In this document: positions 8,663 through 53,478 of the stretch, piece by piece
Position numbering within the stretch: position 1 is the stretch's first letter
Layout of the letters: each line of letters starts with the position of its first letter
Assembly: GCA_963768165.1 (NCBI GenBank)
Contig: CAVYHJ010000002.1
Span: 195,283 to 259,282 of the forward strand
Length of the DNA: 64,000 nt
Direction: 5' to 3'
Origin: an uncultured bacterium
GTDB lineage: Bacteria > UBP4 > UBA4092
The notes under the pieces: model-generated
Databases searched by the model: none
Told to the model about the DNA's origin: nothing
What the model saw: the letters and a program-made list of their open reading frames with translations, nothing else
Position numbers and translations under genes: made by a program

Positions 8663-10996
8663 CTACGGCTTTTTATCCTTATGCTCGATCTTCTTGAAAT
8701 CATCAAGGGTTTCAGTCTTTTTGTTGAGGTCGTTTTTTAACCGCTGTAACGCCACTCTCATGACATCTCCATGAGAAATCCGCTTACCGTCCATGCGGGA
8801 CTGTACGTCAAGCCATAGGCTGTGTACCATATTAATATCTTCCTCACTCAATTGAGGAGCATGGGCACCCAAATTAAAGACATATTCAAACCCGTCCATA
8901 TCCACGACTTTAAACTGGACTTGTCGACGGGGTTTTTGCGGGAGCCGTTCCCAAGCTTGGCCAATGAGCTTTTCCTGTTCCCGGGCGTTCATTTTGGCAG
9001 ATAGACCGGTCACGATTTCAGCGGAATCCAGCCGCACCGCCGTTTGCGCCAGCGCATCGAATATATTATTGGAAGGAACCACCAGCAGGTCTACATGTTT
9101 CCCGTGTTTTTCAGCCATATTGACCACCGCGGTAAATAGGCGTTGTTCGTAATCCCGGAATAAGTTTTCCTGGTACAGGTCTCGTTCCCCGCTATCCGGT
9201 CCGGTAAGTAAGCGTATGGTGGTAACTACCACATCCTGTGCCACAGTATCGGTTTCATCCAACATATGTTCCAAGTGAGCGAGGAGATTGTAATTATGTA
9301 CCGCCACTAAAATATTGCCCGGTCGGGTTTGTACGGATTCCAGGCTGACTTCATGTTCTTGCGAAAGATTAAATTGTTCCAGGGAAGATACGGATTTATC
9401 CACTCTTTTGTGATTAATGTATTCCGAAACCGCAAATACGGTATAAAAAATACAGGTAAAGGCAATCCCTGAAATCGTGGCGATTTCTTTGGTAAATATA
9501 TTCACGACAGCGATGAAAAGTAAAACAGACGTAATCAGGATAAGTCCAAACGGGATTTCCAAAGTACCAATATATAAATTCCCCGGGACTTTCCATTCCC
9601 GCGGTGATTTGTCCTTATAGCGCAATACCACCATCGCCAGCCCTTTGAAGGCAAAAGACCATACCACACCAAAGGCGTAGGCTTCACCGAGCATATAGAC
9701 GTCTCCATGAGAACCCACGATGGTTAATAGTTGCATAAAGACAATCAAATTGATCATCCGGTAAGTGGTGCCGTATTTTTTCTGCGGTTTTCTAAACCAG
9801 GACGTCAGCACACCGTCTTCACTCAGCCGGTTGAGTACGCCGTTCGACCCGACAATGGCGGTATTCACCGCGCCGGAAAGCATTAAAAATCCCACAAAGA
9901 CTACAAAGGCTTGGAATAATAAGCGTAACGACAGTGGGCCAATCATATACATCGAAAGACCCGATATTAAATTGTCAAAGTATTGCGGTCGTACCGAGTC
10001 CGGGATAATCATAGAAGCAAAAATGCTGACCAGGGAAGTGAATATCAGGGAATAAACAAAGATGACAAAGCCGGCGCGCATAAGGTTTTTATGTTTGGGA
10101 TATTCCAGTTCCCTGTTCACCTGCGCCAGGGATTCTTCTCCGCTCATGGCTAAAACCGCATGGCCAAATGCGATCATGATTCCCAGTACCCCCATCCACA
10201 TGCCGAGTCCCCCGCGCATTCCAAACCGGGTTTCAGGGGGCGGTGCACTTGGATCCGCGGGGACAGCGTTGGGAGTATGAGTTAATGGATAAAATGCTTT
10301 AGGGAATATTTTCGGCATCCATCCGATAGCATCTTTGCTATATTCCATATGGCTGGCGGTCGGGGGAGGGGGCATTTGAGTTATCCCTTTTTGGATAAGA
10401 GTCAGGCTGCACCAGAATATCATAATGACCACCATCACGGTAGTAATTTTCATTATTTGTAAAGCATCCGAGGACGATTCATGCATCCCCTGGATATTCC
10501 GCCACCAGAAATACAGGGTTATAAATATGGCGATTCCAGCGGAAATCAAGTTAATGACCGATTTATCGGGCTGCCAGGGATGGCCAAAATAGGTCATAGT
10601 TTGCGCCACCAGTCCTACAATATACTGTCCTGCCGACACACCTGAAATGGGTCCCGTGAGTACATAGTCAAACATCAGGGCAGACACACTGATTTTAGCG
10701 AGCGTCCCGCCCATGGCTTCTTTGACCACGCGGTACACCCCACCCCGGGTAAACATGGCACAGCTTTCAACATAGACTGCCCGCACGGCGTAACTGAATA
10801 ACATGACCCCCAAAACCAGCCAGGGAGCCGCCCGGCCTGCCGCTTCTTCCGCAATCCCACCGACATAAAATGCCGATGAGCCCAGGTCGTTTAAGACAAT
10901 AGCCGCCGCGCGCCAAAAGGAGATAAAGGACAACATCACGGTCGTCGCGATAACTACCCGGACTCGATTTTGTTGAGGTGTAGTAGTAGGTTCCAT
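8663..10996 (-). CDS. APC-superfamily transporter with about 300-aa C-terminal cytoplasmic (USP-like) domain; possible K+ or amino-acid importer
   Basis: About 12 predicted TM segments in the N-terminal 480 aa plus a soluble C-terminal domain; immediately preceded by riboswitch-like leader A. Confidence 0.7.
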   Translation of the reverse strand: MEPTTTPQQNRVRVVIATTVMLSFISFWRAAAIVLNDLGSSAFYVGGIAEEAAGRAAPWLVLGVMLFSYAVRAVYVESCAMFTRGGVYRVVKEAMGGTLAKISVSALMFDYVLTGPISGVSAGQYIVGLVAQTMTYFGHPWQPDKSVINLISAGIAIFITLYFWWRNIQGMHESSSDALQIMKITTVMVVIMIFWCSLTLIQKGITQMPPPPTASHMEYSKDAIGWMPKIFPKAFYPLTHTPNAVPADPSAPPPETRFGMRGGLGMWMGVLGIMIAFGHAVLAMSGEESLAQVNRELEYPKHKNLMRAGFVIFVYSLIFTSLVSIFASMIIPDSVRPQYFDNLISGLSMYMIGPLSLRLLFQAFVVFVGFLMLSGAVNTAIVGSNGVLNRLSEDGVLTSWFRKPQKKYGTTYRMINLIVFMQLLTIVGSHGDVYMLGEAYAFGVVWSFAFKGLAMVVLRYKDKSPREWKVPGNLYIGTLEIPFGLILITSVLLFIAVVNIFTKEIATISGIAFTCIFYTVFAVSEYINHKRVDKSVSSLEQFNLSQEHEVSLESVQTRPGNILVAVHNYNLLAHLEHMLDETDTVAQDVVVTTIRLLTGPDSGERDLYQENLFRDYEQRLFTAVVNMAEKHGKHVDLLVVPSNNIFDALAQTAVRLDSAEIVTGLSAKMNAREQEKLIGQAWERLPQKPRRQVQFKVVDMDGFEYVFNLGAHAPQLSEEDINMVHSLWLDVQSRMDGKRISHGDVMRVALQRLKNDLNKKTETLDDFKKIEHKDKKP

Positions 10997-11016: not shown

Positions 11017-11237
11017 ATAAAAAACGCTCGAAAGGCACGTTCCCTTCGAGCGGTTATTGCCACCACTAAAAGCGCTATGTTAGAAACGTCCACTGTCTCT
11101 CCCACGCCTGCGGGGTTAGCTGTTGGGTTCGGGTTGAAAAGTAACCCTGCGCGTTTCCGCGATTCACCCCCTGACATCGGTTCCCCCGTCTCTTGCGAGC
11201 TCGGCGATCTTTCGTGGGATTCTTATTCCAAATTTAA
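11017..11237 (-). promoter_or_regulatory. Candidate c-di-AMP (ydaO/kimA-type) riboswitch leader, copy A, with intrinsic terminator
   Basis: Conserved core shared with three other copies (RNA sense ...GGGGGAACC...GGGGUGAAUC-CGCG-GAAA-CGCG-CAGGGUUACUUUUCAACCCGAACCC..CAGCUAACC..GCAGGCGUGGG); 3' hairpin CGCUCGAAGG/CUUUCGAGCG plus U-run at 11017-11055; extended -10 TGATATAAT at 11245-11253; start codon 10996 about 20 nt past the U-run. Confidence 0.6.
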
Positions 11238-14195: not shown

Positions 14196-14894
14196 TTATT
14201 CTTTGGCTCCGGCATCTTTCAGGAGTTTTACGATGTCGTCATATTTCTTATATGTCGCTATTGATAAGGCAGTTTTACCATCATTGGTTTTCGTATTGAT
14301 ATTGGCTCCTTTATCTAGCAAGGCTTTCATGGTATCCATACGACCACCACGAACCGCCCACATCAAAGCAGTATAACCAATAACATCTTTCGCATTGACC
14401 TCCGCGCCTTTCGCTAATAAGGCTTGTACGGTCTCGTTATGTCCTACAACTGCCGCATTCATCAAGGCGGTCATACCGTACTTGTTTTTCGCATTGACCT
14501 CCGCACCTTTCGCTAATAAAGCGTTCACGATATTCGTTTGGCCCCACCATGCCGCTGACATCAAGGCGGTGTTACCAAACTTATTTTTTACATTAACATC
14601 GGCTCCTTTCGCCAATAAAGCTTGCACGGTATCTGTATGACCATTTTCTTCTGCTAACATCAAAGCGGACACACCTGTACTATCTTTCACATTCGGGTTC
14701 ATCCCCGCATCCAAATATAATTTTATAACATCGGTTTTGCTATGTCCTGCACATTTAAAAAACTCATCTTCGCTATAGGTAATCTTCATTTGCGCCAGTT
14801 CATTACGCGCTTCTTGCGGGGTTTTGGCGAAGGAAGGGAATACCAGGAACAAAAATAGTACAAGAGAGAGACACGGTAATGGTTTCAATTTCAT
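14196..14894 (-). CDS. Secreted ankyrin-repeat protein
   Basis: Signal peptide then repeated TALM.AA..GH...V..LL.KGA.VNAK units; AAGGAG RBS. Confidence 0.8.
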   Translation of the reverse strand: MKLKPLPCLSLVLFLFLVFPSFAKTPQEARNELAQMKITYSEDEFFKCAGHSKTDVIKLYLDAGMNPNVKDSTGVSALMLAEENGHTDTVQALLAKGADVNVKNKFGNTALMSAAWWGQTNIVNALLAKGAEVNAKNKYGMTALMNAAVVGHNETVQALLAKGAEVNAKDVIGYTALMWAVRGGRMDTMKALLDKGANINTKTNDGKTALSIATYKKYDDIVKLLKDAGAKE

Positions 14895-14976
14895 TATAAT
14901 TGGTACTCCTTTTTCCTCTAGAATGTATGGCGTCGGGAAAAAGAAGAGCGTTTATTCCCGACGCAGTTTTATTCTG

Positions 14977-15783
14977 TTATTCTTTCGCCCCGGCACTCTT
15001 GAGGAGTTTTACGACGTCGGGATGGTTCTCTTTTGCCGCGTCCATCAAAGCAGTATGACCTTCATTATCTTTCGCATTGACTTGAGCACCTTTTTTTAAT
15101 AAGACTTTAACGGTCTCTGCATGACCTGTGACTGCCGCAAACATCAAGGCAGTCCTGCCATTATTGATTTTCGCATTGACTTCAGCACCTTCTTTTAATA
15201 AGACTTGCACAGTCTCCGTATGACCATTCACTGCCGCTAATATCAATGCGGTCACACCACCCTTGTTTTTTGCATTGACATCCGCCCCTTTTGCTAATAA
15301 GGTTTGAACGATCTTCGTATAACCAAACTCTGCCGCAAGCATCAAGGCGTTTTTACCTTGTTTAGTTATCGCATCAACTTTTGCCCCTTTTGCTAAAAGG
15401 GCTTGCAACGTATCTGTACGACCACTAAGTGCCGCCCATGTCAATGGGGTCCAGTCATCGTTTGATTTCGCATTAATATCAGCACCTTTCGCCAATAAGG
15501 CTTGTAGAGTCTCAATATTATTATGAAATGCCGCAGCCATCAAGGGGGTTCGACCATTATCGTCTTTCAAATTCGGATTCATCCCAGCATCTAAAAACAA
15601 TCTCACAGCGTCAGTTTTGCCGTGTTGTGCACAAAAGAGAAATTCATCTTCGCTATAGGTTATTTTCATTTGCGCCAGTTCATTGCGCGCTTCTTGCGGG
15701 GTTTTGGCGAAGGAGGGGAATACCAGAAACGAAAATAGTAAAAGAGAGAGGCTTAATAATGGATTGAATTTCATCATACTTGG
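14977..15783 (-). CDS. Secreted ankyrin-repeat protein (paralog)
   Basis: Start placed at internal MMKFNPLLSL (AAGGAG RBS) rather than the ORF-track start; same N-terminal FLVFPSFAKTPQEARNELAQMKITYSEDEF as neighbour; at least six ankyrin units. Confidence 0.8.
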   Translation of the reverse strand, partial: PSMMKFNPLLSLSLLLFSFLVFPSFAKTPQEARNELAQMKITYSEDEFLFCAQHGKTDAVRLFLDAGMNPNLKDDNGRTPLMAAAFHNNIETLQALLAKGADINAKSNDDWTPLTWAALSGRTDTLQALLAKGAKVDAITKQGKNALMLAAEFGYTKIVQTLLAKGADVNAKNKGGVTALILAAVNGHTETVQVLLKEGAEVNAKINNGRTALMFAAVTGHAETVKVLLKKGAQVNAKDNEGHTALMDAAKENHPDVVKLLKSAGAKE

Positions 15784-16064
15784 TACTCCTTTTTCCCAAA
15801 GAATGAGAGAGTTTTTTATTACCGATAGCATACTCCCTTCTAGAACCCAGAGTCAAGTTAAAGAGTGGAAGGAACGGGAGAAACGGAGAATGGGCGAGAG
15901 AGCGAAATAGAATCAGGAATGAAGGAAAAGGTCAAATATGTTACCTGCTCCAGCAAAGAGATACCCATTATTTTGCCTATAAATAGACAGGTAGAAAAGA
16001 GTTGAAAAGATAACAGATTGTGCTATAATTTTTCTTAGTCAAAAACGGTCGGGAGGACACTTCG

Positions 16065-17670
16065 ATGAAAACACGTAAACGCATTATTGTTATTTCACAT
16101 TTTCTGTTAGGACTCGCTACGATGATTCTGATTTTACCCGGGAGCGGGTTCGGGAACCAATTGGTGTATTCCACGTATCTGGGCGGGACGAGCGATCATG
16201 CGGAATCATTAGGGATTGCGATTGATACGGCTGGGAATATCTATATTACCGGATTTACCAAAGCACCGAATTTTCCCGTCACAGCATCCGGCTACGATAC
16301 AGTGTATGAAGGCGCGGGAGAGCATGTGTTTGTAAGCAAAATCAATCCGAGTTTATCGGGTGTCTCGTCTTTAGTCTATTCCACTTTTCTTGGCGGAGAG
16401 GGATATGAACTTGCCCGGGGCATTGCGGTGGATAGCGCGGGGAATATCTATGTAACCGGCTTTACCAACTCCTCTACCTTTCCAGTAACCGCGAATGCCT
16501 ACGATACAGGATTACATGGCGCGGAGTACGCGGCTTATCTCAGCGAAATCAATCCGAGTTTATCGGGTGCTTCTTCGTTGGTGTATTCCACGTATCTGGG
16601 TTCGGGTTACGCGGGAGGCTATGGCATTGCCCTTGGTAAATCCGGCAATGCCTATATTACCGGCTCTCAAAGCTATTACACGTTCCCGGTAACTGCCAAT
16701 GCCGTGGATACTGTGGGTACCGGCAATGATGTCGCTTTTATCTCTGAATTTAATACCAGTTTATCGGGTGTCTCCTCCCTGGTCTATTCGACTTTGCTGG
16801 GACCCAAGGACACTTTCGCCGCATATGCCAATGCCATCGCCGTAGATACTTCAGGGAAAATTTACGTAACCGGATTGACGGACTCGTCCACCTTACTTAC
16901 CACAACCAATGCGTTTAATACGACTTTTCATGGGTTACAGGACACGTTTGTGAGTGTGATAAATCCTAATGTGGCGGGATTGGCGGGGTTGGTGTATTCG
17001 ACCCTGCTGGGAGGAAGCCCCGCTAATTACGAGGATTCCGGCAATGGAATTACGGTAGACAAAGCGGGTATTGCCTATGTCACCGGTGTAACAGAAGACA
17101 CAATCTTCCCGGTGACCGCCATTGCCTATGACACCGTATTCAAAGGAAACGGAAATGTATTCCTGTGCAAAATCAATCCGTCCTTATCGGGGGTCTCGTC
17201 TCTGGTCTATTCGACATTATTAGGCGGCAGTGGGGGCGAGGGAGGGGAAGCCATTGCCATTGATACTGCCGAGAAAGTCTATGTGACAGGGTACACATTT
17301 CCCGGTCACGGCAGACGGGTATGATACGACATTCAACGGAACTCAGGATGTTTTTGTGACTGTATTGAATCCCAACTCATTGGGAACCTCCGCTTTGATT
17401 TATTCGACCTTTCTGGGAGGCAATAGCTATAGCGATGGACAGGGAATTGCTCAAGACAATAATAACAAAGTGTATGTCACAGGATATACCTATGCATCGA
17501 ATTTCCCCATCACCTCCAATGCTGTCAGCACTTCTTTACGAGGGACTGCAGGCAGTAACTATGATGCCTTTGCCACGGTGCTGAATATCACTCCTCCGGT
17601 AGCGGTCAATGATTGGATGCTGTATGCAGAGCCGGAAGTGGCGCAAGGGAGTGAGTCGGGAAAGAGGTAA
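16065..17670 (+). pseudogene. SBBP (beta-propeller) repeat protein disrupted by frameshift/deletion
   Basis: Repeating LVYSTYLGG...IYVTGFT...FPVTA.AYDT units; frame 0 stops at 17324 (VTGYTFPGHGRRV*) while the repeat continues in frame +1 from 17299 (FPVTADGYDTTFNG...). Confidence 0.55.
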
Positions 17671-18562: not shown

Positions 18563-20090
18563 ATGCCAACATTTCTAGCAAGGAATATTCCGGTAAGTAC
18601 AAAATATAAAAATCACTTAGAAAAGGACCATAATATATTTATTCCGTTGTTGTTCTTTGTGATTTATTGTTTCAGTTTTATATTTCACGATCCAATCACA
18701 CACATTTATTATGGGTATTGGCAATTATTACCTTTGGATGCTTTACTTCAACATCCCATTAGTAGTTTACTCCTGATTCACTCACAACCTCCCCTGCTTA
18801 ATCTACTGTTTTATATCGTACATATTCCATCCATGATATGGGAAATCAATCCTCAATTCACCGCAACGCTTTTATTTTTCTTTATCTCCCTATTCTCGAT
18901 ATATGTCTATTACAACCTGGTTTTTCTTATCACAAAAAATAAAGTATGTGGCATGGCCGTTCTTTCCCTCATTCTACTCAATCCCGGTTTCTCCTTTTTT
19001 CAGGGGTATTTCTTTTATCAGAATATGGACTTTTTAGTCAGTGGTATCCTGGTCTATCAAGCCTGTCTGTGGGCACTAAAACCGGATTTATACCGATTTG
19101 GAGGCGTGGTCATAGTGTATACTACAATGGTTTATTTACGGAGTTTATGGCATCCTCTTTTCGGATTTTTTATCGTTCTCTTTTTACCCCTAATGATTTA
19201 TCCAAAAATGAATAAAAAAATAATCCAAAAGCATTGGATCTATGGCAGTCTCCTTTTTATTTTATTAATCAGTCCTTGGATGTTAAAAAACCTTATTTTG
19301 TTTAACACCCCTTCTTTTTCTTCCTGGCTGGGTGGAAACCTTGGTGGTCAACGATTTTCGAAATTCATTCTTTCCAATAATCCAGCCGATGCTTTTGATA
19401 ACTCTTTGGTTAAACAATATTATTCCGACTGGCAATTAAAGATTTTAATGAATTATCCTGCTACTGCAGACATCGAAAAAAATTTAATTTCTGCCCCCCC
19501 CCTACATGAAGAGAAATTTAAATCACTACGCCCTTCCTGCAATCTGTAATGAGGATATGAAAGAGCGAATATCCTATTATAGAGAACACCCCTACCAATA
19601 TATACAGAGAATCTATTCAAATTTTGTCTACATGGATCTTCCCCCATATATTAATTCGTATACACAGGATTCAACAACAGGTTGGTATGGCGGTTTGCAA
19701 CGGATGGGAACTTATGGATATTGGTATGATGTCATATTTTATGGAAGTTGGTTTAGAAATTTTATAGTCATACATACCCTGGATTTTGTATACAGACCCA
19801 GCCTGTTTATCTTCATACTGATCCTGCTGTTATTACTCAGCATTCGGTTGGCAATCAATCAAAAGACAGAACCTATCCAGAGAATATTTTATTTCTTGTC
19901 ATCGTTAATGTTTCTCTGGTTTCTTGCCATGATTTTACTGATCGATGGAAAGGAAAGTAACCGAATGAGATGGGATATGGAAGGGATCTATCTATCAATC
20001 CTGGTTGAACGATGTTACGCCCTCTATCAATCTTTGAGGATACATAAACCGAATAATAAAAAACGGGTCCAAGTCAAACGCAGTAAATAA
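18563..20090 (+). pseudogene. Polytopic membrane protein split by frameshift at a 9-C homopolymer
   Basis: ORFs 18563..19549 and 19506..20090 overlap in different frames at the C9 tract 19494-19502; removing one C fuses them (...ISAPPYMKRNLNHY...). Confidence 0.5.
19494..19502. repeat. Poly-C homopolymer tract (9 nt)
   Basis: CCCCCCCCC at the junction of the two overlapping ORFs. Confidence 0.9.
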
Positions 20091-21039: not shown

Positions 21040-21261
21040 TTACAGAAGTTTAAGGAATTCTTCCACGGTTAAACCGGAATTGCGGATGAGCGCTCGCAGA
21101 GTCCCTACTGAAAGTTCCTTGTGCTGGGGAATCGAGAGATTGACCCGGATTCCGGGTTTGACGAGAACCAGATGACTACCGACCTGACCCATGACCTGCC
21201 ACCCGGCTTTTTGAAAAGCCTTGGCGGCTTCCCTCCCAGAAATATTGGCCAGTCTCCCCAT
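21040..21261 (-). CDS. hicA: Type II toxin-antitoxin system HicA-family toxin
   Basis: 73 aa; SGREAAKAFQKAGWQ...GSH...GTLRALIRNSGL matches the HicA pattern. Confidence 0.7.
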   Translation of the reverse strand: MGRLANISGREAAKAFQKAGWQVMGQVGSHLVLVKPGIRVNLSIPQHKELSVGTLRALIRNSGLTVEEFLKLL

Positions 21262-21265
21262 TGGA

Positions 21266-21481
21266 TCAAACAGCGACTACAACCGGAGAGTGACCTTTGG
21301 CGGGTTTGCGTTTTCGCAGGGCTTTTTGGTCTTCCGCCCATAGCCAAGCGGTGATGGCTTCTTTTACATTTTCCAAGGCTTCTTTTTCGTCTTTACCTTG
21401 GGAAACGCAACCGGGGAGTGCGGGAACCTCCGCGACAATCCACCCGTCTTCCGCTTTCTCTAATAAAACGTGAAACATCAT
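21266..21481 (-). CDS. hicB: Type II toxin-antitoxin system HicB-family antitoxin (UPF0150-like)
   Basis: 71 aa; MMFHVLLEKAEDGWIVAEVPALPGCVSQGKDEKEALENVKEAI matches the small HicB pattern; 4-nt gap to hicA. Confidence 0.7.
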   Translation of the reverse strand: MMFHVLLEKAEDGWIVAEVPALPGCVSQGKDEKEALENVKEAITAWLWAEDQKALRKRKPAKGHSPVVVAV

Positions 21482-23022: not shown

Positions 23023-25002
23023 CTATTTGGTTTTGGCGGAGTAGTTGTAGATAGCCAGCGAGATGACGCTGAGGAAGGATTCGAGGAGATAGTCCTGTTC
23101 TTGCGAGAGGAACTGAGAATCCTGCGGACGACCGATAGCGAGGACGCCGACAATATCGTTTTTGACGTTCAAGGGGATAAAGCGCCACGCGGAAGAGGAG
23201 AGAGTCTGGGTCTCCCGACCGGCAAGTTCCTTGTGCTCAAATACCCATAAAGCGATAGTCATTTCGTGACTATTAAATTTCACAGAGTCACCGGTTTGGG
23301 AGCGGATAGTGAGTTTACCGGTTTTGTCGGGAAGCAGGAGCGCCGAGTCACAGGCGAACATTTCGGAAATGTCCGAACTGATTCTATCGAGCAAATCAAT
23401 AAACCCGATAGCGTGATACAAATCCTGGCTGAATTCATTGAGCAACGAAATGTACCGCACCTGGGTGCGGGAAGATTCCGATTGCCGTTTGAGACGGTCG
23501 GCAAGGAGACTTGTCACAATGCCGACTAAAAACATGACAAAGAACGTGGGCAGATAACTCATATCGCTGACTGTAAAAGTGAAAATCGGCGGAACAAAAA
23601 AGAAATCGAAACAAAGCACGCTCAACAGGGATGCGACCAGACCGCCGATGAGTCCGCGATAAATCCCTGACAGAATCACGGGAATGATGAATAAAAGGGC
23701 AACATTCGTGAGACCGATGTAAGAATGAAGAGGAAAGCAAATGAGAGTGGTTGCGCCCACGATGGCAAGGCTCATAAGATAGGAACGCCAATCAAGAACG
23801 AGATTGCTTCGTCGCTGCGCTCCTCGCAATGACAAAGGTTGTGGTGACGATTCGCCACCGACTACCAAGACTTGAATAGGATTGCTTTTATCAATAATCT
23901 GGTTCAAGAGTGACCCGCGTATCATTCTACGAAACCGGGATTGGCCGGAGAAACCAACAATAATCAACGAGGCATTTTTTGAACGGGCAAACCGCACGAC
24001 TTCATCGGCAGGCTGGTTGCTGGAAAGACGGACAATTTTCCCGCCCAATTCTTTGGCGAGATTAAAATTCTTCTCCAACTGTTTAGCCCTTTGCGGGTCG
24101 AGCGTAGTTTGCACCTGTGGTTCGACATAGACCGCAAACCAATCGGCTTTTAAATCTTCCGCCAACCGATGTGCCACGCGGACGGGTTGTTCGGACAAGG
24201 GACTCGGACTGATACATACCATAATCCGGGTGCCGACGGGCCAGGGACCTTTAATGCCCTGCAATTGCATGTAAGAGAGCATGGCATCGTCCACGTGCTT
24301 GGCGGTATAGCGCAGGGCTAATTCGCGGAGCGCGAGCAAAGTGCCTTCTTTAAAATAATTCTGGGAGGCGAGTTTCGCCATATTGGCCATGTAGACTTTA
24401 CCTTCGGTTAAGCGCTGGAGAAGTTCTTCCACGGGAAGGTCTACGAGAGCAATTTTATCCGCCAGTTCCAGAATGCGGTCGGGGACGGTTTCCTTCACTT
24501 CAATTTTGGTAATTTGATAAATAATGTCATTGACACTTTCAATATGCTGGATGTTCAAGGTGGTGTAGACACTGATACCGTTATTGAGGAGTTCTTCAAT
24601 ATCTTGAAACCGTTTTACATGGCGTGACCCGGGGACATTGGTATGCGCCAATTCATCCACCAGAACATATTTGGGTTTGCGCTTAAGAATATAGTCCAGG
24701 TTAAACTCATCCAAGACCATACCCTGATATTCTATTTTCAGGAGGGGAGAACGTTCCAATCCAAAAATCAACTGTTCGGTTTCGGCACGACCATGGGTTT
24801 CGACAATGCCGATAATGATATCTTCGCCCTTTTGTTTGATCGCCTGGGCTTCCTGCAACATGCGGTAGGTCTTGCCGACACCGGCCACGTACCCTAAGAA
24901 TATTTTAAGAAATCCCCGGGTGCGATGCTGCTGTTCCTGTTCTTTATTAAACAGGTTCAGCAGTTGATCCGGATCGGGGCGATTTTGATTCTGTTCAACC
25001 AT
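23023..25002 (-). CDS. kdpD: KdpD sensor protein lacking histidine-kinase domains
   Basis: N-terminal P-loop GVGKTY, USP-like region, 4-TM block and GAF-like C-terminus; ends at 659 aa with no H-box or HATPase motifs; directly downstream of kdpC. Confidence 0.75.
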   Translation of the reverse strand: MVEQNQNRPDPDQLLNLFNKEQEQQHRTRGFLKIFLGYVAGVGKTYRMLQEAQAIKQKGEDIIIGIVETHGRAETEQLIFGLERSPLLKIEYQGMVLDEFNLDYILKRKPKYVLVDELAHTNVPGSRHVKRFQDIEELLNNGISVYTTLNIQHIESVNDIIYQITKIEVKETVPDRILELADKIALVDLPVEELLQRLTEGKVYMANMAKLASQNYFKEGTLLALRELALRYTAKHVDDAMLSYMQLQGIKGPWPVGTRIMVCISPSPLSEQPVRVAHRLAEDLKADWFAVYVEPQVQTTLDPQRAKQLEKNFNLAKELGGKIVRLSSNQPADEVVRFARSKNASLIIVGFSGQSRFRRMIRGSLLNQIIDKSNPIQVLVVGGESSPQPLSLRGAQRRSNLVLDWRSYLMSLAIVGATTLICFPLHSYIGLTNVALLFIIPVILSGIYRGLIGGLVASLLSVLCFDFFFVPPIFTFTVSDMSYLPTFFVMFLVGIVTSLLADRLKRQSESSRTQVRYISLLNEFSQDLYHAIGFIDLLDRISSDISEMFACDSALLLPDKTGKLTIRSQTGDSVKFNSHEMTIALWVFEHKELAGRETQTLSSSAWRFIPLNVKNDIVGVLAIGRPQDSQFLSQEQDYLLESFLSVISLAIYNYSAKTK

Positions 25003-25012
25003 TGATTTTCAC

Positions 25013-25579
25013 TTATTTTTTAAGGACATCCAGTGCCATATTCAATTTTAATACATTGACAACCGGATCGCCGAACAACCCCAAGAGAGGTTTTTCGGTA
25101 TATTTTTGAACCAAATCAGTTACGACATCATCCTGCAAACTGCGAGATTTTGCAACTCTTGGCACTTGAAGCAAGGCGGCATCCAGACTTATATGGGGAT
25201 CGAGACCGCTGGCCGAGGATGTGACCAAGTCCACGGGAACAGGCGCATCGGGTGGCAAATTATTTTCCGCACGAACCGCGCGTGCCGTGGAATCAATCTG
25301 GCTAATCAATTTCTGGTTGGTGGGACCGAAATTGGTCGCATTGGAATTGGTGGCATCGAAATTAGCCGCCGAGGGACGCCCGTGGAAATATTCGGGTTTG
25401 GTGAAGGATTGTTCTATTAATTCGGAACCAACAACCTTGTTGTTCACTGTCGCCAGACTGCCATTGGCCTTGTGTGGGAAAAGTATCTGTGCGATTCCGG
25501 TCATTGCCAACGGGTATATCAACCCGGTGAGAATGGTGAATACGATTAAACTCAAGATGGAAATTTTTAACTGTTTCAT
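25013..25579 (-). CDS. kdpC: K+-transporting ATPase subunit KdpC (operon 1)
   Basis: 188 aa, N-terminal TM, conserved GRPSAANFD and SGLDPHIS segments. Confidence 0.85.
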   Translation of the reverse strand: MKQLKISILSLIVFTILTGLIYPLAMTGIAQILFPHKANGSLATVNNKVVGSELIEQSFTKPEYFHGRPSAANFDATNSNATNFGPTNQKLISQIDSTARAVRAENNLPPDAPVPVDLVTSSASGLDPHISLDAALLQVPRVAKSRSLQDDVVTDLVQKYTEKPLLGLFGDPVVNVLKLNMALDVLKK

Positions 25580-25596
25580 TTGTATAATCTCCTTTT

Positions 25597-25686
25597 TTAA
25601 TAACTTCTACCCGACTTTAGTCGAGGGTTCGGGGACTTCAGTCCCAATTTAAGGGCTAAAGCCCTAAGAACCGTGGACTAAAGTCC
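25597..25686. repeat. Interspersed double-hairpin palindromic repeat (family R1), copy 3
   Basis: CTTCTACCCGACTTTAGTCGAGGG..GGACTTCAGTCC..GGGCTAAAGCCC..GGACTAAAGTCCCGTAGAAGAA between kdpC and kdpB. Confidence 0.6.
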
Positions 25687-25702
25687 CGTAGAAGAAAATA
25701 TG

Positions 25703-27739
25703 TTATGCCCAACCTAATACAACGATGAGCATGTCAATTAGTTTGATACCGATGAAGGGAAGAAGCACTCCGCCCAACCCATATACCAGTAAATTCATTT
25801 TCAAGAACGAGGAAACGGAAACGGCACGTAATTTGACGCCCCTCAATGCCAACGGGATTAAGAACAAAATAATAATCGCGTTGAAAATGACGGCGGACAA
25901 AATCGCACTCCCAGGATTATTTAACCTCATCACATTCAGAATATTCAACTGCGGATAAGCGACCGCAAACATTGCCGGAACGATGGCGAAATATTTCGAG
26001 ACATCGTTGGCAATACTAAAAGTAGTAAGCGCGCCACGCGTGATAAGGATTTGTTTTCCGACTTCCACAATATCGAGAAGTTTCGTGGGATTGGAATCCA
26101 AATCAATCATATTGGATGCTTCCCGCGCCACCTGCGTGCCTGCATTCATAGCGACCGCGACATCGGCTTGCGCGAGAGCGGGTGCGTCATTAGTCCCGTC
26201 TCCAATCATCGCGACAAGGTTACCGTCCTCTTGTGCCTTGCGAATTAATGCCAATTTGGTTTCGGGTTTGGCCTGAGCAACGAAATCATCCAGCCCGGCT
26301 TCCGCGGCAATCGAAGCAGCGGTGAGCGGGTTATCGCCGGTAATCATGGTGGATTTGATACCCATTTCACGGAGTTGCGCGAGACGAGCTTTAATGCCTT
26401 GTTTCAGAACGTCTTTGAGACGAATCACGCCAAGAACTCTTTTCCCGTCAGAAACGACCAAAGGCGTATTACCTTGTTTGGCGAACCCTTCCACGATGTC
26501 CTTGACTCCGGCAGGGATTGTGGCATTGGACTGTTTCAGAAATTCTTCAATCGCGTCCAAGGAACCCTTGCGGATTTTTTTGCCATCAATATCAATCCCG
26601 CTCATGCGTGTTTCGGGAGTGAAAGGTACGAACACGGCACCTTCGGGAGCACGGATATCGCTTCCCTTGATACCTTTTTCGGTTTTACAGAGGGTTACAA
26701 TACTTCTGCCTTCGGGAGTTTCATCGGATAGTGAGGATAACAAGGCACAGTCCACCAATTCTGCTTTTTCAACTCCAGCAGAAGGAACCAAATCGGTTGC
26801 CATACGATTGCCGAGAGTGATGGTACCCGTCTTATCGAGCAAGACGATATTGACATCGCCTGCCGCTTCTACCGCACGACCGCTCAGAGCGATGACGTTG
26901 TGTTGTAATAGTCTATCCATCCCTGCGATACCGATAGCGGGAAGTAAACCGCCAATGGTGGTCGGCATGAGGCATACCAAGAGAGAAATCAATATCGGGA
27001 CGGTGGTCGCGATACCCAAATAATTGGCATAGGTGGGCAGGACGATAACGACGATTAGGAACAACACTGTGATGCCGACAAGGAGAATTTCTAAAGCGAT
27101 TTCATTGGGTGTCTTTTGACGTTTCGCGCCTTCGACCATAGAAATCATGCTATCGAGGAATGTCTCACCGGCATTCGCCGTGATACGGATTTTGATATGT
27201 CCCGATAATAGTTTGGTTCCACCAGTCACGCCACTGCGGTCACCACCGGATTCCCGAATCACGGGAGCGGATTCACCAGTGATGGCAGATTCGTCCACAA
27301 GAGCGACGCCTTCGATAATTTCTCCATCACCGGGAATGACTTCCCCTTCAATAACCAGAATCAAATCGCCTTTGCGAAGATCCAAGGCGGATACTTTTTC
27401 TTTCGCTCCACTTTCCAATATTTTAAGAGCAAAGAGTTCGCTGCGTGCTTTCCGCAAAGATTCCGCACGTGCTTTCCCTTGAATTTCCGCCAAGGCTTCC
27501 GAGAAGGTGGCGAAAAGAACGGTCACCCAGAGCCAAAGGGTAATTTGCAAATTAAACCCGAAACTGGCATGATGGGTGATATTGATTACCGTGATGATAG
27601 TGGTAATCACAGCGCCGATTTCAACGACCAACATTACGAGATTGCGCCATAATAAAAAGGGATTTAATTTTTTAATAGCTTCCTGCAATCCCTTGAACAG
27701 AAAGTCCGCTTGAAATATACTTCGTTTCGTTTGTGCCAT
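25703..27739 (-). CDS. kdpB: K+-transporting P-type ATPase subunit KdpB (operon 1)
   Basis: P-type motifs [21 protein letters not shown]; 678 aa. Confidence 0.95.
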
Positions 27740-27806
27740 ATATTATCTCCTTAGAACCACCACCCCCTTCCCCCTCCTTAATTAAGGAGGGGGACTGAGG
27801 GAGTGA

Positions 27807-29507
27807 TTAAAATGTTTTTCCTTGCAACATGAATAAATGTTCCAACACGGGACCGAGGGTGAATGCCGGGAAATAGGTCAATGCGCCGACAATAAAGACT
27901 ACGCAAACCAGCATAGCGACAAATAACCAGCCGGTGGTTGGAAATGTAGCCAAACTGGTAGGAACAATCTTTTTCCTGACCAGTGCTCCGGCAATAGCCA
28001 GTCCTGGAATGAGGGTGGAAAATCGTCCAACCAACATGGTGGCGCCACCGGTTAAATTATAAAACACGGTATTGGCGTTAAGTCCGGCAAACGCGGAACC
28101 GTTATTCCCACCATAGGATAAAAAGGCATATAACACTTCCGACCAACCGTGGGCGGAGGGATTATTCATGCTGGACAATCCGGTGGCGGTAATCATAGCG
28201 AATGCCGCAAAGATTTTAAGAACAATGGGCGCTGCCAAAATTGCAATCACCGTCCAAATCATTTCATAAGGACCAAGTTTCTTGCCAAGATATTCAGGGG
28301 TACGTCCGATCATCAATCCAGCAATAAACATAGTGGCGAAGACATAGAAAAACATTCCGATGAGTCCGACACCCAATCCGCCGAAGATGACTTCCCCAGT
28401 GCATAAGTTAAACATATAGACTAGACCCGTGAGGGGGAGCATACTGTCGTGCATAGAGTTCACGGAGCCGTTGGAAGTGACGGTGGTCATGTGTCCCCAT
28501 GCAGCAGAATTGATAATCCCAAAACGGGCTTCTTTGCCTTCCATATTCCCCCCAACCAGATGCAACTTATCGAAAAAGGGGTTACCCTGGGTTTCGCTAT
28601 AGAATACTACGGCCAAACCTATAATAAATAGGGTTAACATGGAATAAAAGATGGCTTTGCCTTGACGGCTATCGCGTACCATAAAACCAAACATGAACAC
28701 TTGCGCGGTGGAAATGAAGAGAATTGCCATCATTTCAAAAATATTAGACAAGCCAGTGGCATTCTCAAAGGGATGCGCGGAGTTGACGTTGAAGAAACCG
28801 CCGCCATTAGTTCCCAACTGTTTAATGGCAATCTGTGAAGCTGCAGGACCAACGGCAATGGTTTGCGCACCGCCTTCCAATGTCTTTACTACCTCATACG
28901 GATGTAAGGTTTGAACGACACCTTGAGACACCAAAATGAGGGTAAGGATAATGCTCAATGGCAATAATATATATATTACAGAACGGGTCATATCCACCCA
29001 GTAATTGCCTATCTTGTCGGTATCTTTGCGAATAAATCCGCGAATCATGGCGACCATGACTGCCATCCCCATCGCGGGGGTAACGAAATTATGTACCGTG
29101 AGTCCCAGCATTTGGGTGAGATAACTCAGGGTACTTTCCCCGCCATACGCCTGCCAGTTGGTATTGGTGACAAAAGAGATGGCGGTATTTAATGCCAAAT
29201 CCCAACGGACGGCAGCGAATTTTTGCGGATTCAAAGGCAGATGCCCTTGAAGAAGCTGCAATAAAAATAAAGCGGCGAGAAATATTACATTGAACCAGAA
29301 TACCGCCCAGGCATAAGTTTTCCAGTTCATTTCTTCGGATTCATTGACGCCGCAGAGACGGTATATTCCACGCTCAAGAGGTTTTAAGAACCCGCTGAGA
29401 AATGTCCATTCTCCGTTATACACCCGGAACATATATTTCCCTGTCGGGATGGACAGGAAAAACATGATTGCCAAGGCAACAACAACTACAATCATATCTA
29501 TTAACAT
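27807..29507 (-). CDS. kdpA: K+-transporting ATPase subunit KdpA (operon 1)
   Basis: 566-aa polytopic protein with KdpA-typical GTNGGGFF selectivity-filter-like motifs. Confidence 0.9.
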   Translation of the reverse strand: MLIDMIVVVVALAIMFFLSIPTGKYMFRVYNGEWTFLSGFLKPLERGIYRLCGVNESEEMNWKTYAWAVFWFNVIFLAALFLLQLLQGHLPLNPQKFAAVRWDLALNTAISFVTNTNWQAYGGESTLSYLTQMLGLTVHNFVTPAMGMAVMVAMIRGFIRKDTDKIGNYWVDMTRSVIYILLPLSIILTLILVSQGVVQTLHPYEVVKTLEGGAQTIAVGPAASQIAIKQLGTNGGGFFNVNSAHPFENATGLSNIFEMMAILFISTAQVFMFGFMVRDSRQGKAIFYSMLTLFIIGLAVVFYSETQGNPFFDKLHLVGGNMEGKEARFGIINSAAWGHMTTVTSNGSVNSMHDSMLPLTGLVYMFNLCTGEVIFGGLGVGLIGMFFYVFATMFIAGLMIGRTPEYLGKKLGPYEMIWTVIAILAAPIVLKIFAAFAMITATGLSSMNNPSAHGWSEVLYAFLSYGGNNGSAFAGLNANTVFYNLTGGATMLVGRFSTLIPGLAIAGALVRKKIVPTSLATFPTTGWLFVAMLVCVVFIVGALTYFPAFTLGPVLEHLFMLQGKTF

Positions 29508-29737: not shown

Positions 29738-29896
29738 TAAATAAAAAACCCACTCACTCTTCCACGCCTACGAGGTTAGCTGACGGGCTCGGGTTGAAAA
29801 GTAACCCTACGCTTTCGCGATTAGCCCCAACTTCCGGTTCCCCCGTATCTTTCGAATTCGGCGAACTTAAGTGGTAATACTGCTATATTTTTCTAC
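29738..29896 (-). promoter_or_regulatory. Candidate c-di-AMP (ydaO/kimA-type) riboswitch leader, copy B
   Basis: Same conserved core as copies A, C, D; internal GNRA-capped hairpin CGC-GAAA-GCG; 3' tail GAGUGAGUGGGUUUUUUAU. Confidence 0.6.
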
Positions 29897-32811: not shown

Positions 32812-34560
32812 CTAAAAAGTTTTTCCTTGCAACATAAATAAATGTTCCAATACAGGTCCTAGTGTAAACGCCGGAAAATACGTTAAGGCACCCACAATGA
32901 ATATTACACAGACTAACATGACAACAAACAACCAACCAGTGGTAGGAAAAGTGGCTGTACTTGTAGGAACAATCTTTTTCTGTACTAGTGAACCGGCAAC
33001 AGCCAGTCCCGGTATTAAGGTGGCGAACCGACCTACTAGTATGGTGACTGATCCTGTGAGGTTATAAAATAAGGTGTTAGCGTTAAGACCCGCAAAAGCA
33101 GAACCATTATTACCACCAAAGGATAAATAGGCATAGAGTATTTCTGACCAGCCATGTGCTGAGGGATTATTTAAGCTGGATAATCCTGTCGGTGTAATAA
33201 TGGCAATCGCTGAAAATATTTTGAGTATGATAGGCGCTGCCAGAATTGCAACCACCGTCCAAATCATTTCATAAACTCCTAATTTTTTACCCAGATACTC
33301 AGGAGTTCGTCCTATCATCAACCCGGCTATGAACATGGTGGTAAATACATAAAACAAAACACCAACCGTTCCTATGCCGACACCGCCGAAAATTACTTCT
33401 CCGGTACCCATAAAGAACATATAAACCAAACCGGTGAGCGGGAGCATACTGTCATGCATGGAATTAATCGAACCATTGGCTGTTCCTGTTACCAATCCTC
33501 CCCACACAGCGGAGTTTATAATCCCACAGCGAGTTTCCTTGCCTTCCATATTCCCGCCCACAACGTGTAATTTAGCAAACAAAGGATTCCCTTGCGTTTC
33601 TGTATATACACAAATGATTAACCCAATCACTAAGAGAATCAACATGGAATAAAAGATGGATCGGCCCTGACGAACATCTTTGACCATATATCCAAAGGTA
33701 AAAACAGGTGCACTGACCAAAAGGATAATCGCCATCATTTCCAAAAACATAGTCAACCCGTTTGGATCTTCAAAAGGATGTGAGGAATTCGTGTTGAAGA
33801 AACCTCCGCCATTGGTACCCAACTGTTTAATAGAAATTTGTGAGGCTACAGGACCCATGGCAATGGTCTGAGACCCGCCTTCCAAAGTTTTCACAGTTAC
33901 ATAAGGATGTAAGTTTTGAATAACACCCTGGGATCCCAATATCAATCCTAAAACAATACTTAATGGAATTAACACGTAAAGAATCGACCGGGTCAAGTCC
34001 ACCCAATAGTTACCAATAAAATTGGTATCTTTGCGTATAAATCCCCGGGTCAGAGCAACCAATACTGCTAAAGCTATGGCAGGAGAGACAAAATTATGCA
34101 CAGTCATACCTAGCATTTGGGTAAGATAACTCATGGTGGTTTCTCCCCCATAAGCCTGCCAGTTGGTATTGGTGATAAAGGAGATAGCTGTATTTAATGC
34201 CAGGTCCCATTTCAACCCCGGCAATTTTTGTGGATTCAGAGGAAGATAACCCTGAACCAGTTGTAAGACAAACAAAGTTATCAAAAAGATAACATTTGAC
34301 CAAACAAATGCCCAAGCATAGGTTTTCCAATTCATCTCCTCATCTTCATTAATGAAACAAACCCGGTAGATTCCTTTTTCCAATGGCCGGAATACCGGGG
34401 AAAGAAATGTTCTTTTCCCTTCGTATACATGAGCCATGAATTTCCCTATTGGGATGGACAGGAGTAATGTAACGATTAAACCAATTGTGACTACAAGTAT
34501 ATCTATCATATTAATTATCCTTTCTTCAAAAGATGGTCTTTCATTAATCTCATTAATCAA
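32812..34560 (-). CDS. kdpA: K+-transporting ATPase subunit KdpA (operon 2)
   Basis: Paralog of 27807..29507; alternative start at 34509 (MIDILVV, GAAAGGA RBS) is plausible. Confidence 0.9.
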   Translation of the reverse strand: MINEINERPSFEERIINMIDILVVTIGLIVTLLLSIPIGKFMAHVYEGKRTFLSPVFRPLEKGIYRVCFINEDEEMNWKTYAWAFVWSNVIFLITLFVLQLVQGYLPLNPQKLPGLKWDLALNTAISFITNTNWQAYGGETTMSYLTQMLGMTVHNFVSPAIALAVLVALTRGFIRKDTNFIGNYWVDLTRSILYVLIPLSIVLGLILGSQGVIQNLHPYVTVKTLEGGSQTIAMGPVASQISIKQLGTNGGGFFNTNSSHPFEDPNGLTMFLEMMAIILLVSAPVFTFGYMVKDVRQGRSIFYSMLILLVIGLIICVYTETQGNPLFAKLHVVGGNMEGKETRCGIINSAVWGGLVTGTANGSINSMHDSMLPLTGLVYMFFMGTGEVIFGGVGIGTVGVLFYVFTTMFIAGLMIGRTPEYLGKKLGVYEMIWTVVAILAAPIILKIFSAIAIITPTGLSSLNNPSAHGWSEILYAYLSFGGNNGSAFAGLNANTLFYNLTGSVTILVGRFATLIPGLAVAGSLVQKKIVPTSTATFPTTGWLFVVMLVCVIFIVGALTYFPAFTLGPVLEHLFMLQGKTF

Positions 34561-34819: not shown

Positions 34820-35179
34820 CTACAAAAATGAAACTGCGCATTCATCCGTTTCTCCGGTACGAATACGAACGGCTCTTTCGATTGGAAACACATAAATTCT
34901 GTCATTGGAGACTTTGCCATTACGCGCGGCAAACATCATGGTTTCCACAATCCGGTCGGTTTGTTCTCGGGGAACAACCACTTCAACTTTCAATTTGGGC
35001 AGAAAATCCATAATATACTCCACTCCCCGATAAACTTCTTTATGCCCTTTTTCCGTCCCACAGACTTGAACTTCTGTCACGGTGATGCCTTGAACTCCAA
35101 GGGCCTGAAGCGCGTCTTTCACATCATCCAACTTATACGGTTTAATGATGCATTCAATTTTGTTTAACATATTTAACAT
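34820..35179 (-). CDS. P-II (GlnB/GlnK-like) signal-transduction protein, first gene of kdp operon 2
   Basis: KIECIIKPYKLDDVKDAL...GITVTEV...EVYRGVEY...FLPKLKVEVVVP...RIRTGE aligns with GlnB; T-loop and GDGKIF-like B-loop are diverged; AGGAGG RBS. Confidence 0.75.
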   Translation of the reverse strand: MLNMLNKIECIIKPYKLDDVKDALQALGVQGITVTEVQVCGTEKGHKEVYRGVEYIMDFLPKLKVEVVVPREQTDRIVETMMFAARNGKVSNDRIYVFPIERAVRIRTGETDECAVSFL

Positions 35180-35427
35180 GTTTCTTTAACCTCCTATGTA
35201 GCAAGTTAATCTCGATTCAAATATTTTTTAATTAGCAAAGTGCGGAGCCGGAAACTTAAGGAGGAAACCGGCTCCGCGATTAGCCCATATAACACAATTC
35301 AAAAATATGGGTTAACTTTTAAATTCTAATTACATCATCCGATACATGTATTTGGACTTAAACCAAAATTAACGTCATGTATCTATAACGATGAATCAAT
35401 TATTTAGGAAGTTAATGGGGTGGGGTT

Positions 35428-35590
35428 TCAATAAAAAACCCACTCACTCTTCCACGCCTGCGAGGTTAGCTGACGGGCTCGGGTTGAAAAGTAACCCTAC
35501 ACCTTGCGGTGATTCGCCCCAACTTTCGGTTCCCCCGCCTTTTTCAAGCTCGGCGAACTTAAGTGGTACTATTAAAATTCTATGTTATTT
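35428..35590 (-). promoter_or_regulatory. Candidate c-di-AMP (ydaO/kimA-type) riboswitch leader, copy C
   Basis: Conserved core; internal hairpin CACC-GCAA-GGUG covaries with GCGC-GCAA-GCGC (D), CGC-GAAA-GCG (B) and CGCG-GAAA-CGCG (A). Confidence 0.6.
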
Positions 35591-35760
35591 TACTTATATA
35601 AAAATAACGCATATCCCATACCAGTTATAATGAATTCTAAAGGTTTTCAACAACTCAAATATTTTCAATATTTTACAATTAAATCTGTAAAAACCATTCG
35701 GTAAACTTATGACATAAATGTCATTTAGAACTGCGAAACATTGTCATAATTATGACATTT

Positions 35761-35976
35761 TTAGAAACAGTTATGTTTTTTTATGTTCAAGTTATGGATC
35801 ACCTTTAATTGGCTATTTGAGTTATTTTTGTTTTTGGCACACTTAGTTAATACCACCCCACCTTGAGGGTGAATTGCTTTATCGGAGTTATAAAGCATAT
35901 CCTGCAAATCCATAATTTGATCCCTCATAATTCGGATCATATAATCTTCCTGTAACTCGTAATGGGCATGGATCAT
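35761..35976 (-). CDS. Small helical protein, paralog b
   Basis: 71 aa; AAGGAG RBS; shares an RDQIMDLQDML / RLQIMELQRFL segment with the next gene. Confidence 0.4.
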   Translation of the reverse strand: MIHAHYELQEDYMIRIMRDQIMDLQDMLYNSDKAIHPQGGVVLTKCAKNKNNSNSQLKVIHNLNIKKHNCF

Positions 35977-36001
35977 AGGATTCTCCTTAGTCTTTATTGC
36001 T

Positions 36002-36220
36002 TTAGTACATCAGGAACTTTTGACGGAGTTCCTGGCGCAATTTTTTTAATTGCAATTCGATATTACTTAATGTTTCGACGCCCAATTCGCCATCCTTTTG
36101 AAAACCGTGATTATGTTCCAGCGCCTTTAGAAATCTCTGCAATTCCATAATCTGGAGGCGTAATATACTCGCTCTGAAATCTTTCATTCGACTCATATTT
36201 ATGCCTATTTGAACTCTCAT
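36002..36220 (-). CDS. Small helical protein, paralog a
   Basis: 72 aa; start overlaps the stop of the upstream P-II gene (ATGA). Confidence 0.4.
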   Translation of the reverse strand: MRVQIGINMSRMKDFRASILRLQIMELQRFLKALEHNHGFQKDGELGVETLSNIELQLKKLRQELRQKFLMY

Positions 36221-36558
36221 ACAGCGCTTTCAGACAGTTCTCCAGTTCGAATCCGAACAGCCATATCAATGGGAATCACAATAATCTTAATGTTGGAGAT
36301 ATGATTATTACGCAAGGTTGAAGTAATCGTATCTACAGCCCTGGAGACCATTTCTTCAGGGAGCACTAACTCGATTTTCACCTTAAGTAAATAATCAACG
36401 TTGAACTCTACTCCACGATAAACTTCAGTAGGTTTAATTTCTCGATTAGAAACTTTAACCTCCGTGGCCGCCAATCCGTGAATACCAATATCAAGGAGGG
36501 CTTCTTTCACTTCCTCCACTAGACTGGGTTTGATAATGCACTCGATTTTTTGTAACAT
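36217..36558 (-). CDS. Divergent P-II-like protein (paralog 2)
   Basis: MLQKIECIIKP...ATEVKV...EVYRGVEF...KVKIELVLP...RIRTGE; GlnB-like fold signature with altered T-loop. Confidence 0.6.
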   Translation of the reverse strand: MLQKIECIIKPSLVEEVKEALLDIGIHGLAATEVKVSNREIKPTEVYRGVEFNVDYLLKVKIELVLPEEMVSRAVDTITSTLRNNHISNIKIIVIPIDMAVRIRTGELSESAV

Positions 36559-36686
36559 GGTTATTTACCTCCTCATAAATTTTTTATTTTGTGTTCTCAA
36601 TCGTTTTCATTTCATTGGGACGCCGGATTGGGTGATGTGAATCCGGCGCCCATTAATCCCCCAATAAATATAGTGGATAGCTTGTA

Positions 36687-37028
36687 CTAAGCCGCTTTCG
36701 GATACCATTTTTGGGGATATTGTTCACTTACAACCATTACCGGGACCACATAAAAGTTTCCCTTTGTTTTACCATCAACACAAATAATACGAGTGATGGT
36801 CTCAATCACCCTGTTTACCAGATGTTGGGAAACGATAGTTTCGATTTTGGTGTATGCCTGGAACTCCAACTTGTATTGGATACCCCTATAGGATAAGGTC
36901 GGGCTATTAACCGGATCATACACTTTGGCATCAGAAAGTGTAATCTCATCAATACCCATACCCTTTAGGGCTTCAGTGACTCCACCCAATTTATAGGATT
37001 TGATGGTGCATTCGATTTTTTGAAACAT
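36687..37028 (-). CDS. Divergent P-II-like protein (paralog 3)
   Basis: MFQKIECTIKSYKL...SYRGIQY...TKIETIVS; weaker GlnB-like pattern, C-terminal RxR motif absent. Confidence 0.5.
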   Translation of the reverse strand: MFQKIECTIKSYKLGGVTEALKGMGIDEITLSDAKVYDPVNSPTLSYRGIQYKLEFQAYTKIETIVSQHLVNRVIETITRIICVDGKTKGNFYVVPVMVVSEQYPQKWYPKAA

Positions 37029-37912: not shown

Positions 37913-38097
37913 TTTTCTCCTAACTTTTTGACGAGCAGAGCCGGACTGGTGGCAATCCGACCCTGCTCTAACCCCGCTCATACAATTCAAAATACGGGAT
38001 ATCTTTAAATCCTTAAAAAACACCTATAAGGATTATTTCCAATACATACTGTACAAAAAATGATTAAATTGGTTTAGGAAGTAAAATGGGAGGGTTA

Positions 38098-38261
38098 TAA
38101 ATAAAAAACCCACTCACTCTTCCACGCCTGCGAGGTTAGCTGACGGGCTCGGGTTGAAAAGTAACCCGGCGCTTGCGCGCTTCGCCCCTACTTCTTGGTT
38201 CCCCCGCCTCTTACGAGCTCGGCGAACTTAAGTGGTGCTAAGTTCTTGATTTAATTTTCTA
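38098..38261 (-). promoter_or_regulatory. Candidate c-di-AMP (ydaO/kimA-type) riboswitch leader, copy D
   Basis: Conserved core with GCGC-GCAA-GCGC hairpin; 3' tail GAGUGAGUGGGUUUUUUAU; M23 peptidase gene downstream. Confidence 0.6.
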
Positions 38262-45272: not shown

Positions 45273-45337
45273 TTATCATAACCTACAATGAAAAATAAAA
45301 TACACATAAACCAAATTAGAAAGGGGGGGAATAATTA

Positions 45338-45712: not shown

Positions 45713-45797
45713 AAACGTATTTACTCAAAACCGGCGTCTTGGTTTAACTTACAAGCCGTCGGTTTTTTTACTGTTTCGGGAAAAAAAGGAGAAAAAT

Positions 45798-53437: not shown

Positions 53438-53478
53438 TATATACTCATTATTATAAAATTCTAGTAGAATGTCTCTAG

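Follow-up and report, generated by a model that had tools for sequence, protein, structure and literature searches.

The gene at positions 18563 to 20090 on the forward strand of the analysed DNA (a 64-kb stretch of the genome of an uncultured bacterium, referred to as the window) encodes an uncharacterised polytopic membrane protein with a predicted GT-C fold and is interrupted by a single frame change at a run of nine cytosines (C9). The chances appear even that this interruption represents a real slipped-strand change which recently switched off a glycosyltransferase-like gene. Such a change would be reversible in principle since a run of nine cytosines is intrinsically prone to slippage, and no evidence was found that it is used as a switch. 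The sequence-only reading of this DNA had offered two explanations, phase variation and a sequencing error. Both are retained here as alternatives, but a third one had been omitted, namely a plain slippage mutation which became fixed in the sampled population and left a young pseudogene. This explanation is at least as likely as the two that had been offered.

The tract, CCCCCCCCC, occupies positions 19494 to 19502 of the forward strand and, according to the window sequence, lies inside a reading frame, where it codes for A-P-P. The 5' part of the gene, ORF1 (18563-19549, forward strand), encodes 328 amino acids, of which the final 15 form an out-of-frame tail. The 3' part, ORF2, follows on the same strand in the +1 frame; it is open from 19488, has its first ATG at 19506 and extends to 20090 (194 amino acids). 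ORF1 comprises the membrane helices within approximately residues 23 to 247 and the first half of a soluble loop domain, and the ORF2-frame part adds the second half of this domain and the last membrane helices and carries two motifs, N318-x-N-H-Y and D461-G-x-E464-x-x-R467. When the tract was edited in silico, the removal of one C resulted in a single ORF of 508 amino acids (tract C8) and the addition of two Cs in one of 509 amino acids, while a C10 version was still out of frame. The earlier expectation that the loss of one C restores a single ORF therefore holds, but the length of this ORF is 508 rather than about 520 amino acids.

The position of the frame change was derived from homology using a family HMM built from 59 relatives, with the window sequence left out. 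The ORF1 frame matches HMM positions 8 to 298 up to nucleotide 19483 (240.9 bits), and the ORF2 frame matches HMM positions 301 to 484 from nucleotide 19509 onwards (134.6 bits). Consequently, the switch is confined to the 25 nucleotides from 19484 to 19508 (forward strand) which include the tract. No base forms a longer homopolymer than C9 in the 64-kb window, where all remaining ones have a length of at most 8, and by simple arithmetic the chance of a 25-nt interval containing the only run of at least 9 is approximately 5e-4. In comparison to Markov models of order 0 to 5 for the same 64 kb, G/C runs of at least 9 were observed once versus 0.08-0.23 expected, and those of at least 8 three times versus 0.4-1.0 expected. 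A scan of every homopolymer of at least 6 in the window identified C9 as the only one at which a shift of frame connects two open stretches, each of 100 codons or more, belonging to one gene; two A6 sites that also emerged were rejected as split genes, being explained by an ordinary 4-nt overlap of the genes at 41316-42095 and 42092-43705. The frame break is thus causally tied to the C9 tract, be it biologically or technically. These results, together with full-length relatives, bear out the view of the sequence-only reading that both ORFs belong to one gene of a polytopic membrane protein and that they are separated by a single frameshift at 19494-19502. The location of the switch within 25 nt around the only homopolymer of at least 9 in the window also argues for a slippage mutation.

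No match was obtained for the repaired protein in Pfam or NCBIfam, and a profile search against the PDB sequences returned noise only. A word-indexed search of 5.8 billion proteins recovered, besides ORF1, two relatives of full length: P0002 (508 amino acids, 38% identity) and P0003 (492 amino acids, 28% identity). Both align end to end across the junction and thereby provide the comparison with orthologs which had been proposed as a check. On the family HMM the repaired ORF reaches 384 bits. When 1.84 billion cluster representatives were searched with a profile, 1,740 relatives at E<=1e-3 and 77 at E<=1e-30 emerged as members of the family, the figure of approximately 1,740 referring to representatives at 50% clustering. 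Nearly all of its best representatives are single polypeptides of 470 to 510 amino acids in which both halves are covered, and this typical organisation in a family of such size is a further argument for a slippage mutation in the window gene. A scan of genome contigs revealed 40 distant loci in metagenome-assembled genomes of Sumerlaeota, Thermoanaerobaculia, Verrucomicrobiota, Omnitrophota, Myxococcota and others. Among the 127 ORFs flanking the 40 family loci neither a conserved gene partner nor a conserved neighbour for donor synthesis was detected, the commonest neighbour being a PMT_2-type GT-C gene (5 of the 127).

The fold was deduced from the homologue P0002, which was modelled using a 116-sequence alignment; a 4-sequence alignment gave a pLDDT of 49. 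The P0002 model (pLDDT 93) displays a GT-C fold, and the window protein is accordingly predicted to be a polytopic membrane protein with the conserved N-terminal helix module of GT-C enzymes. The GT-C fold is established by this model; the gene product is probably a glycosyltransferase using a lipid-linked sugar. The hydrophobic segments of the window protein are located within residues 23 to 247 and 413 to 459 and flank a soluble stretch of approximately 165 residues (248-412), which is most likely a periplasmic domain. The tract codes for residues 311 to 313 in the middle of this stretch.

All residues that are invariant in the family are present in the window protein: H73, Q75, P76, P77, P141, K242 and N243 before the tract and N318, E464 and R467 after it. 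The near-invariant residues are N320, H321, W452, D461, G462 and R469. D461, which is found in 59 of the 60 members, and E464 are the only acidic residues of the family that are invariant or nearly so, and both are located close to the C-terminus in the ORF2 half. Loop 1, by comparison, holds the invariants H73, Q75, P76 and P77, and its Asp (column 57) occurs in 33 of the 60 members; the window protein has a Pro at this position and an Asp two residues further on. For ArnT (undecaprenyl-phosphate-L-Ara4N:lipid A transferase, PDB 5F15), PglB, STT3, PMT, ALG3, PIG-M and AftB the sequence identity is 7-12%. In contrast to ArnT and the other GT-C enzymes with their usual acidic motif in loop 1, the window family is characterised by the invariant elements H-x-Q-P-P, K-N, N-x-N-H and D-G-x-E-x-x-R.

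Half of the soluble domain, the final membrane helices and both motifs, N-x-N-H-Y and D-G-x-E-x-x-R, would be missing from the ORF1 product, which judging from the sequence is therefore presumably non-functional, and the gene OFF. Only this OFF state was observed, in a gene which is otherwise intact. Both halves fit the profile about equally well (0.83 and 0.73 bits per position) and sum to 375 bits versus the 384 bits of the repaired ORF; the 3' half has retained its conserved residues and displays no decay, which implies that the break is recent, reversible, bypassed or not real. The similar fit of the two halves and the retention of the invariant residues are consistent with a slippage mutation. 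The frequency of promoter-like and terminator-like sites did not exceed that in shuffled sequences.

A natural division of the protein into two subunits encoded by ORF1 and ORF2 was rejected, since no relative is split in this manner, the ATG of ORF2 at 19506 is not preceded by a purine-rich Shine-Dalgarno-like motif in the sequence and the tail of ORF1 is out of frame. Shine-Dalgarno-like sequences are used in this genome, for instance the GGGGGGG ahead of the pseudopilin gene at 45338.

For the slippage mutation we propose the following course of events. The poly-C tract lies in a loop of the soluble domain that is not conserved, and slipped-strand mispairing at replication may have altered it by one C, most simply from C8 to C9. 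Translation would depart from the frame at codon 313 and meet a stop 15 codons later, so that the truncated product would lack the last helices and the invariant D-G-x-E-x-x-R motif and the gene would be OFF. The downstream half without decay suggests that the break is recent.

The sequence context of the tract is in agreement with such a placement. The columns of residues 307 to 312 (NLISAP) are gapped in 44 to 48 of the 60 relatives, and the closest homologue (L002) has TTCCCGGCAGAC at the position of the tract and no homopolymer there. The tract is hence located in a lineage-specific, non-conserved loop insertion in which in-frame changes in length should be harmless.

The best surviving alternative assumes that the true tract is C8 (or C11), that the gene is intact and that the additional C originates from a homopolymer miscall in long reads during sequencing or assembly. 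We regard this error as rather doubtful; the evidence points in both directions. The break is located at the longest homopolymer of the window, where one base is sufficient to cause it, and the perfectly preserved 3' half would be expected of an intact gene. The contig has a length of 1.26 Mb and was therefore built from long reads. In R10.4 Nanopore data the calling at read level is weakest at cytosine 8-9-mers, and bins with a coverage below 40x need polishing (PMC9262707). Moreover, a large survey of frameshifted genes traced those that have spanning homologues but no relatives with a frameshift mostly to sequencing errors (PMC3711429), and by the criteria of this survey the disrupted gene is such a singleton with spanning homologues. 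The use of long reads, their weakness at cytosine runs and the survey, along with the possible dependence of the sequencing runs discussed below, weigh against a slippage mutation. The case resembles the homopolymer errors of long-read metagenome-assembled genomes (PMC9262707) in its single-base break at the longest homopolymer, the very long contig and the otherwise intact gene; it differs from them in that the tract length agrees between the k-mer assemblies of two runs, the remaining homopolymers are unaffected and the change appears to be an insertion and not a deletion.

The same C9 was found in the Logan k-mer contigs of the runs ERR11523654 and ERR11523656, which may be the assembled read sets themselves and are thus perhaps not independent of the record. 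For ERR11523654, a 6,441-nt contig covers the gene (the same contig is recorded for a second sample) and 5,267 nt of a second contig were obtained, and ERR11523656 contributed two contigs. In total, the four Logan contigs span 16.8 kb with 38 homopolymers of at least 6, including C9 and a G8, and are 100% identical to the window. This agreement argues against a miscall, as does the finding that no other homopolymer breaks a gene in the 64 kb: all eight 8-mer homopolymers in coding ORFs of the window are in frame. A generally homopolymer-poor assembly can consequently be ruled out, although a systematic miscall at C9 alone would fit these data. Agreement of both runs at C9 and the eight coding 8-mers in frame in turn count for a slippage mutation. 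The consensus of R10.4 data has furthermore been reported to resolve the vast majority of runs below 11 correctly (PMC9262707). A miscall could mask an intact gene only as an insertion of one base or a deletion of two bases, and a C10 that was under-called would itself be out of frame. The usual homopolymer bias of long reads is the loss of one base; the direction required here is contrary to it and thus favours a slippage mutation.

A second argument of this kind is provided by the neighbouring gene, located 2.2 kb upstream of the GT-C gene, which encodes SBBP beta-propeller repeats. It is likewise split, into ORFs at 16065-17324 (419 amino acids) and 17356-17670 (104 amino acids) on the forward strand, with a break at approximately 17298 identified by comparing the gene with its own repeats. 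In the six other repeats 12 nt separate the codons for 'VTGxT' and 'FPVT', whereas the broken repeat ('VTGYT') has 1 nt at this place, which corresponds to a deletion of 11 nt that is also present in the Logan contig L001. A deletion of 11 nt is beyond any homopolymer miscall and demonstrates that real gene inactivation occurs in this stretch. It speaks against the error explanation and increases the prior probability that the frameshift in the GT-C gene is real, thereby supporting a slippage mutation; in comparison to a selected switch, plain decay becomes the more likely reading. The disrupted pair has two adjacent ankyrin-repeat protein genes upstream (14196-15831, reverse strand) and a HicA/HicB toxin-antitoxin pair downstream (21040-21481, reverse strand), and the surrounding stretch, with spacers of 30% G+C, looks like accessory DNA.

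As another alternative, the tract may constitute an evolved contingency locus in which switching between C8, C9 and C10 varies an enzyme for surface glycans, for example in response to phages or grazers, with the record representing the OFF phase. This scenario seems unlikely. It is favoured by repeat length: C9 lies within an ORF and reaches the PhasomeIt cut-off for poly-G/C tracts of at least 9, and it is glycosyltransferase genes that form the classic class with poly-G/C phase variation (PMC5953494). The same cut-off counts against a plain mutation. Additional points in its favour are the predicted GT-C fold of the protein, the position of the tract in a loop insertion that would tolerate in-frame changes, the intact 3' half and the occurrence of C9 in a gene with a G+C content of just 35.6% (window, 41.9%). 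The excess of G/C runs of at least 8 mentioned above may also be counted here, as the second of the three, a C8 at 47605-47612, is found in frame within another GT-C gene (TMEM260-like GT-C plus TPR, 46696-48714, reverse strand). The third, a G8 at 39721-39728, lies however in frame within the essential gene def (peptide deformylase) and has no counterpart in a relative (L045) with 79% nucleotide identity. Since CCC is the commonest Pro codon (32%) and GCC the commonest Ala codon (30%) of the window, the sequence GCC-CCC-CC does not require special selection.

The search for variation in tract length does not support a contingency locus either. When the products of C5, C6, C7, C8, C10, C11 and C12 were looked up as exact matches, there was no hit in 15 billion proteins, a junction-centred search returned just the two halves and no fragment bridging the junction, and the clusters of ORF1 and ORF2 contain one member each. 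In the JGI metagenomes neither a match to the flanks with any tract of 6 to 12 nt nor close protein relatives were detected. C9 was the only length found, identically in two runs, from a very thin sampling of one organism in two or three runs. Relatives lack the repeat, being gapped or different at its position, and the other runs of 8 in the 64 kb examined are in frame; the repeat is thus neither kept in orthologues nor, within these 64 kb, part of a set of such loci. Like the decay of the neighbouring gene, these observations speak against a selected switch.

The lgt and pgl glycosyltransferase genes of Neisseria with poly-G/C tracts of 9 to 15 are the obvious systems for comparison. Like the window gene they carry an intragenic G/C run of at least 9 in which a change of 1 nt decides whether the product is full-length or truncated (PMC5953494). 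In the window gene, by contrast, one tract length is seen and the tract is absent from all relatives. Unlike the host-adapted Neisseria, the organism of the window is uncultured and known from metagenome runs only, and three GH44 genes are located in the window. The enzymes differ as well: classic poly-G/C phase-variable glycosyltransferases are known as soluble GT-A or GT-B enzymes, whereas the window enzyme has a predicted GT-C membrane fold.

Finally, it was considered that a C9 template yields the full-length protein by recoding, either because tRNA-Pro slips by +1 on CCC_C ahead of the rare CTA codon or through slippage at the transcript level; the split would then be apparent or leaky. 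This is very improbable, although the tract reads CCC CCC CTA in the ORF1 frame, CTA is the rarest Leu codon of the window (6%), the shift needed is +1, and CCC as a slippery codon followed by a rare or a stop codon leads to 1-5% of +1 slippage in E. coli (PMC10861913): the frameshift and the tract are conserved in no relative, all of which have single ORFs, a Shine-Dalgarno-like stimulator is absent, and a weak RNA hairpin is predicted upstream (z = -2.45) while nothing downstream of or across the tract beats shuffled sequences. Transcript slippage was rejected as the main mechanism since neither E. coli nor Buchnera showed transcript insertions in G or C runs, and homopolymers are rarely the starting point of transcript deletions (PMC5574713). 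At most, recoding would account for a leak of a few percent as a side effect.

Further features of the window were recorded independently of the disrupted gene. Four c-di-AMP riboswitches (ydaO, RF00379), all on the reverse strand, occur within 27 kb (11090-11216, 29750-29873, 35440-35565 and 38110-38234). They precede an amino-acid permease gene (8663-10996), an operon ending with KdpD (23023-29507), a KdpA gene (32812-34560) and an ORF of 219 amino acids (37364-38023) which resembles an M23 peptidase by eye. This cluster around potassium-transport genes is unusually dense for one riboswitch class. Three small ORFs that are paralogous to each other (119, 113 and 113 amino acids; 34820-37028, reverse strand) are situated in between two of the potassium-transport units under riboswitch control and by eye resemble P-II (GlnB-type) signal proteins. 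The three GH44 glycoside-hydrolase genes are tandem paralogues (48952-55965, reverse strand) with products of 561, 808 and 828 amino acids, the two larger of which carry He_PIG Ig-like domains. The overlapping ORFs at 45338-46662 were rejected as a second split gene since they represent separate genes: three consecutive pseudopilin genes (45323-46662, forward strand) with the N-terminal methylation motif have overlapping open frames that mimic a split gene, and the G7 run ahead of the first one serves as a Shine-Dalgarno-like sequence.

Frame breaks of a single base at homopolymers are routine in metagenome-derived genomes, whether they arose by mutation or by error, and as it stands the present one matters little; the split gene calls of 328 and 194 amino acids should be annotated as one disrupted gene. 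The more far-reaching interpretation, that a homopolymer ON/OFF switch varies a surface glycan of a free-living, uncultured environmental bacterium by means of an undescribed GT-C family (no Pfam model), for instance to escape from phages, is quite improbable. If it were true, contingency loci would extend beyond host-adapted pathogens, and mixed tract lengths in the reads would make this a rare documented example in which a repeat mediates phase variation in a non-pathogenic lineage from the environment. With respect to the protein itself, the window gene belongs to a widespread family with a predicted GT-C fold. This family is not covered by any curated model and is marked by a distinctive combination of invariant residues; it may deserve to be described in its own right.
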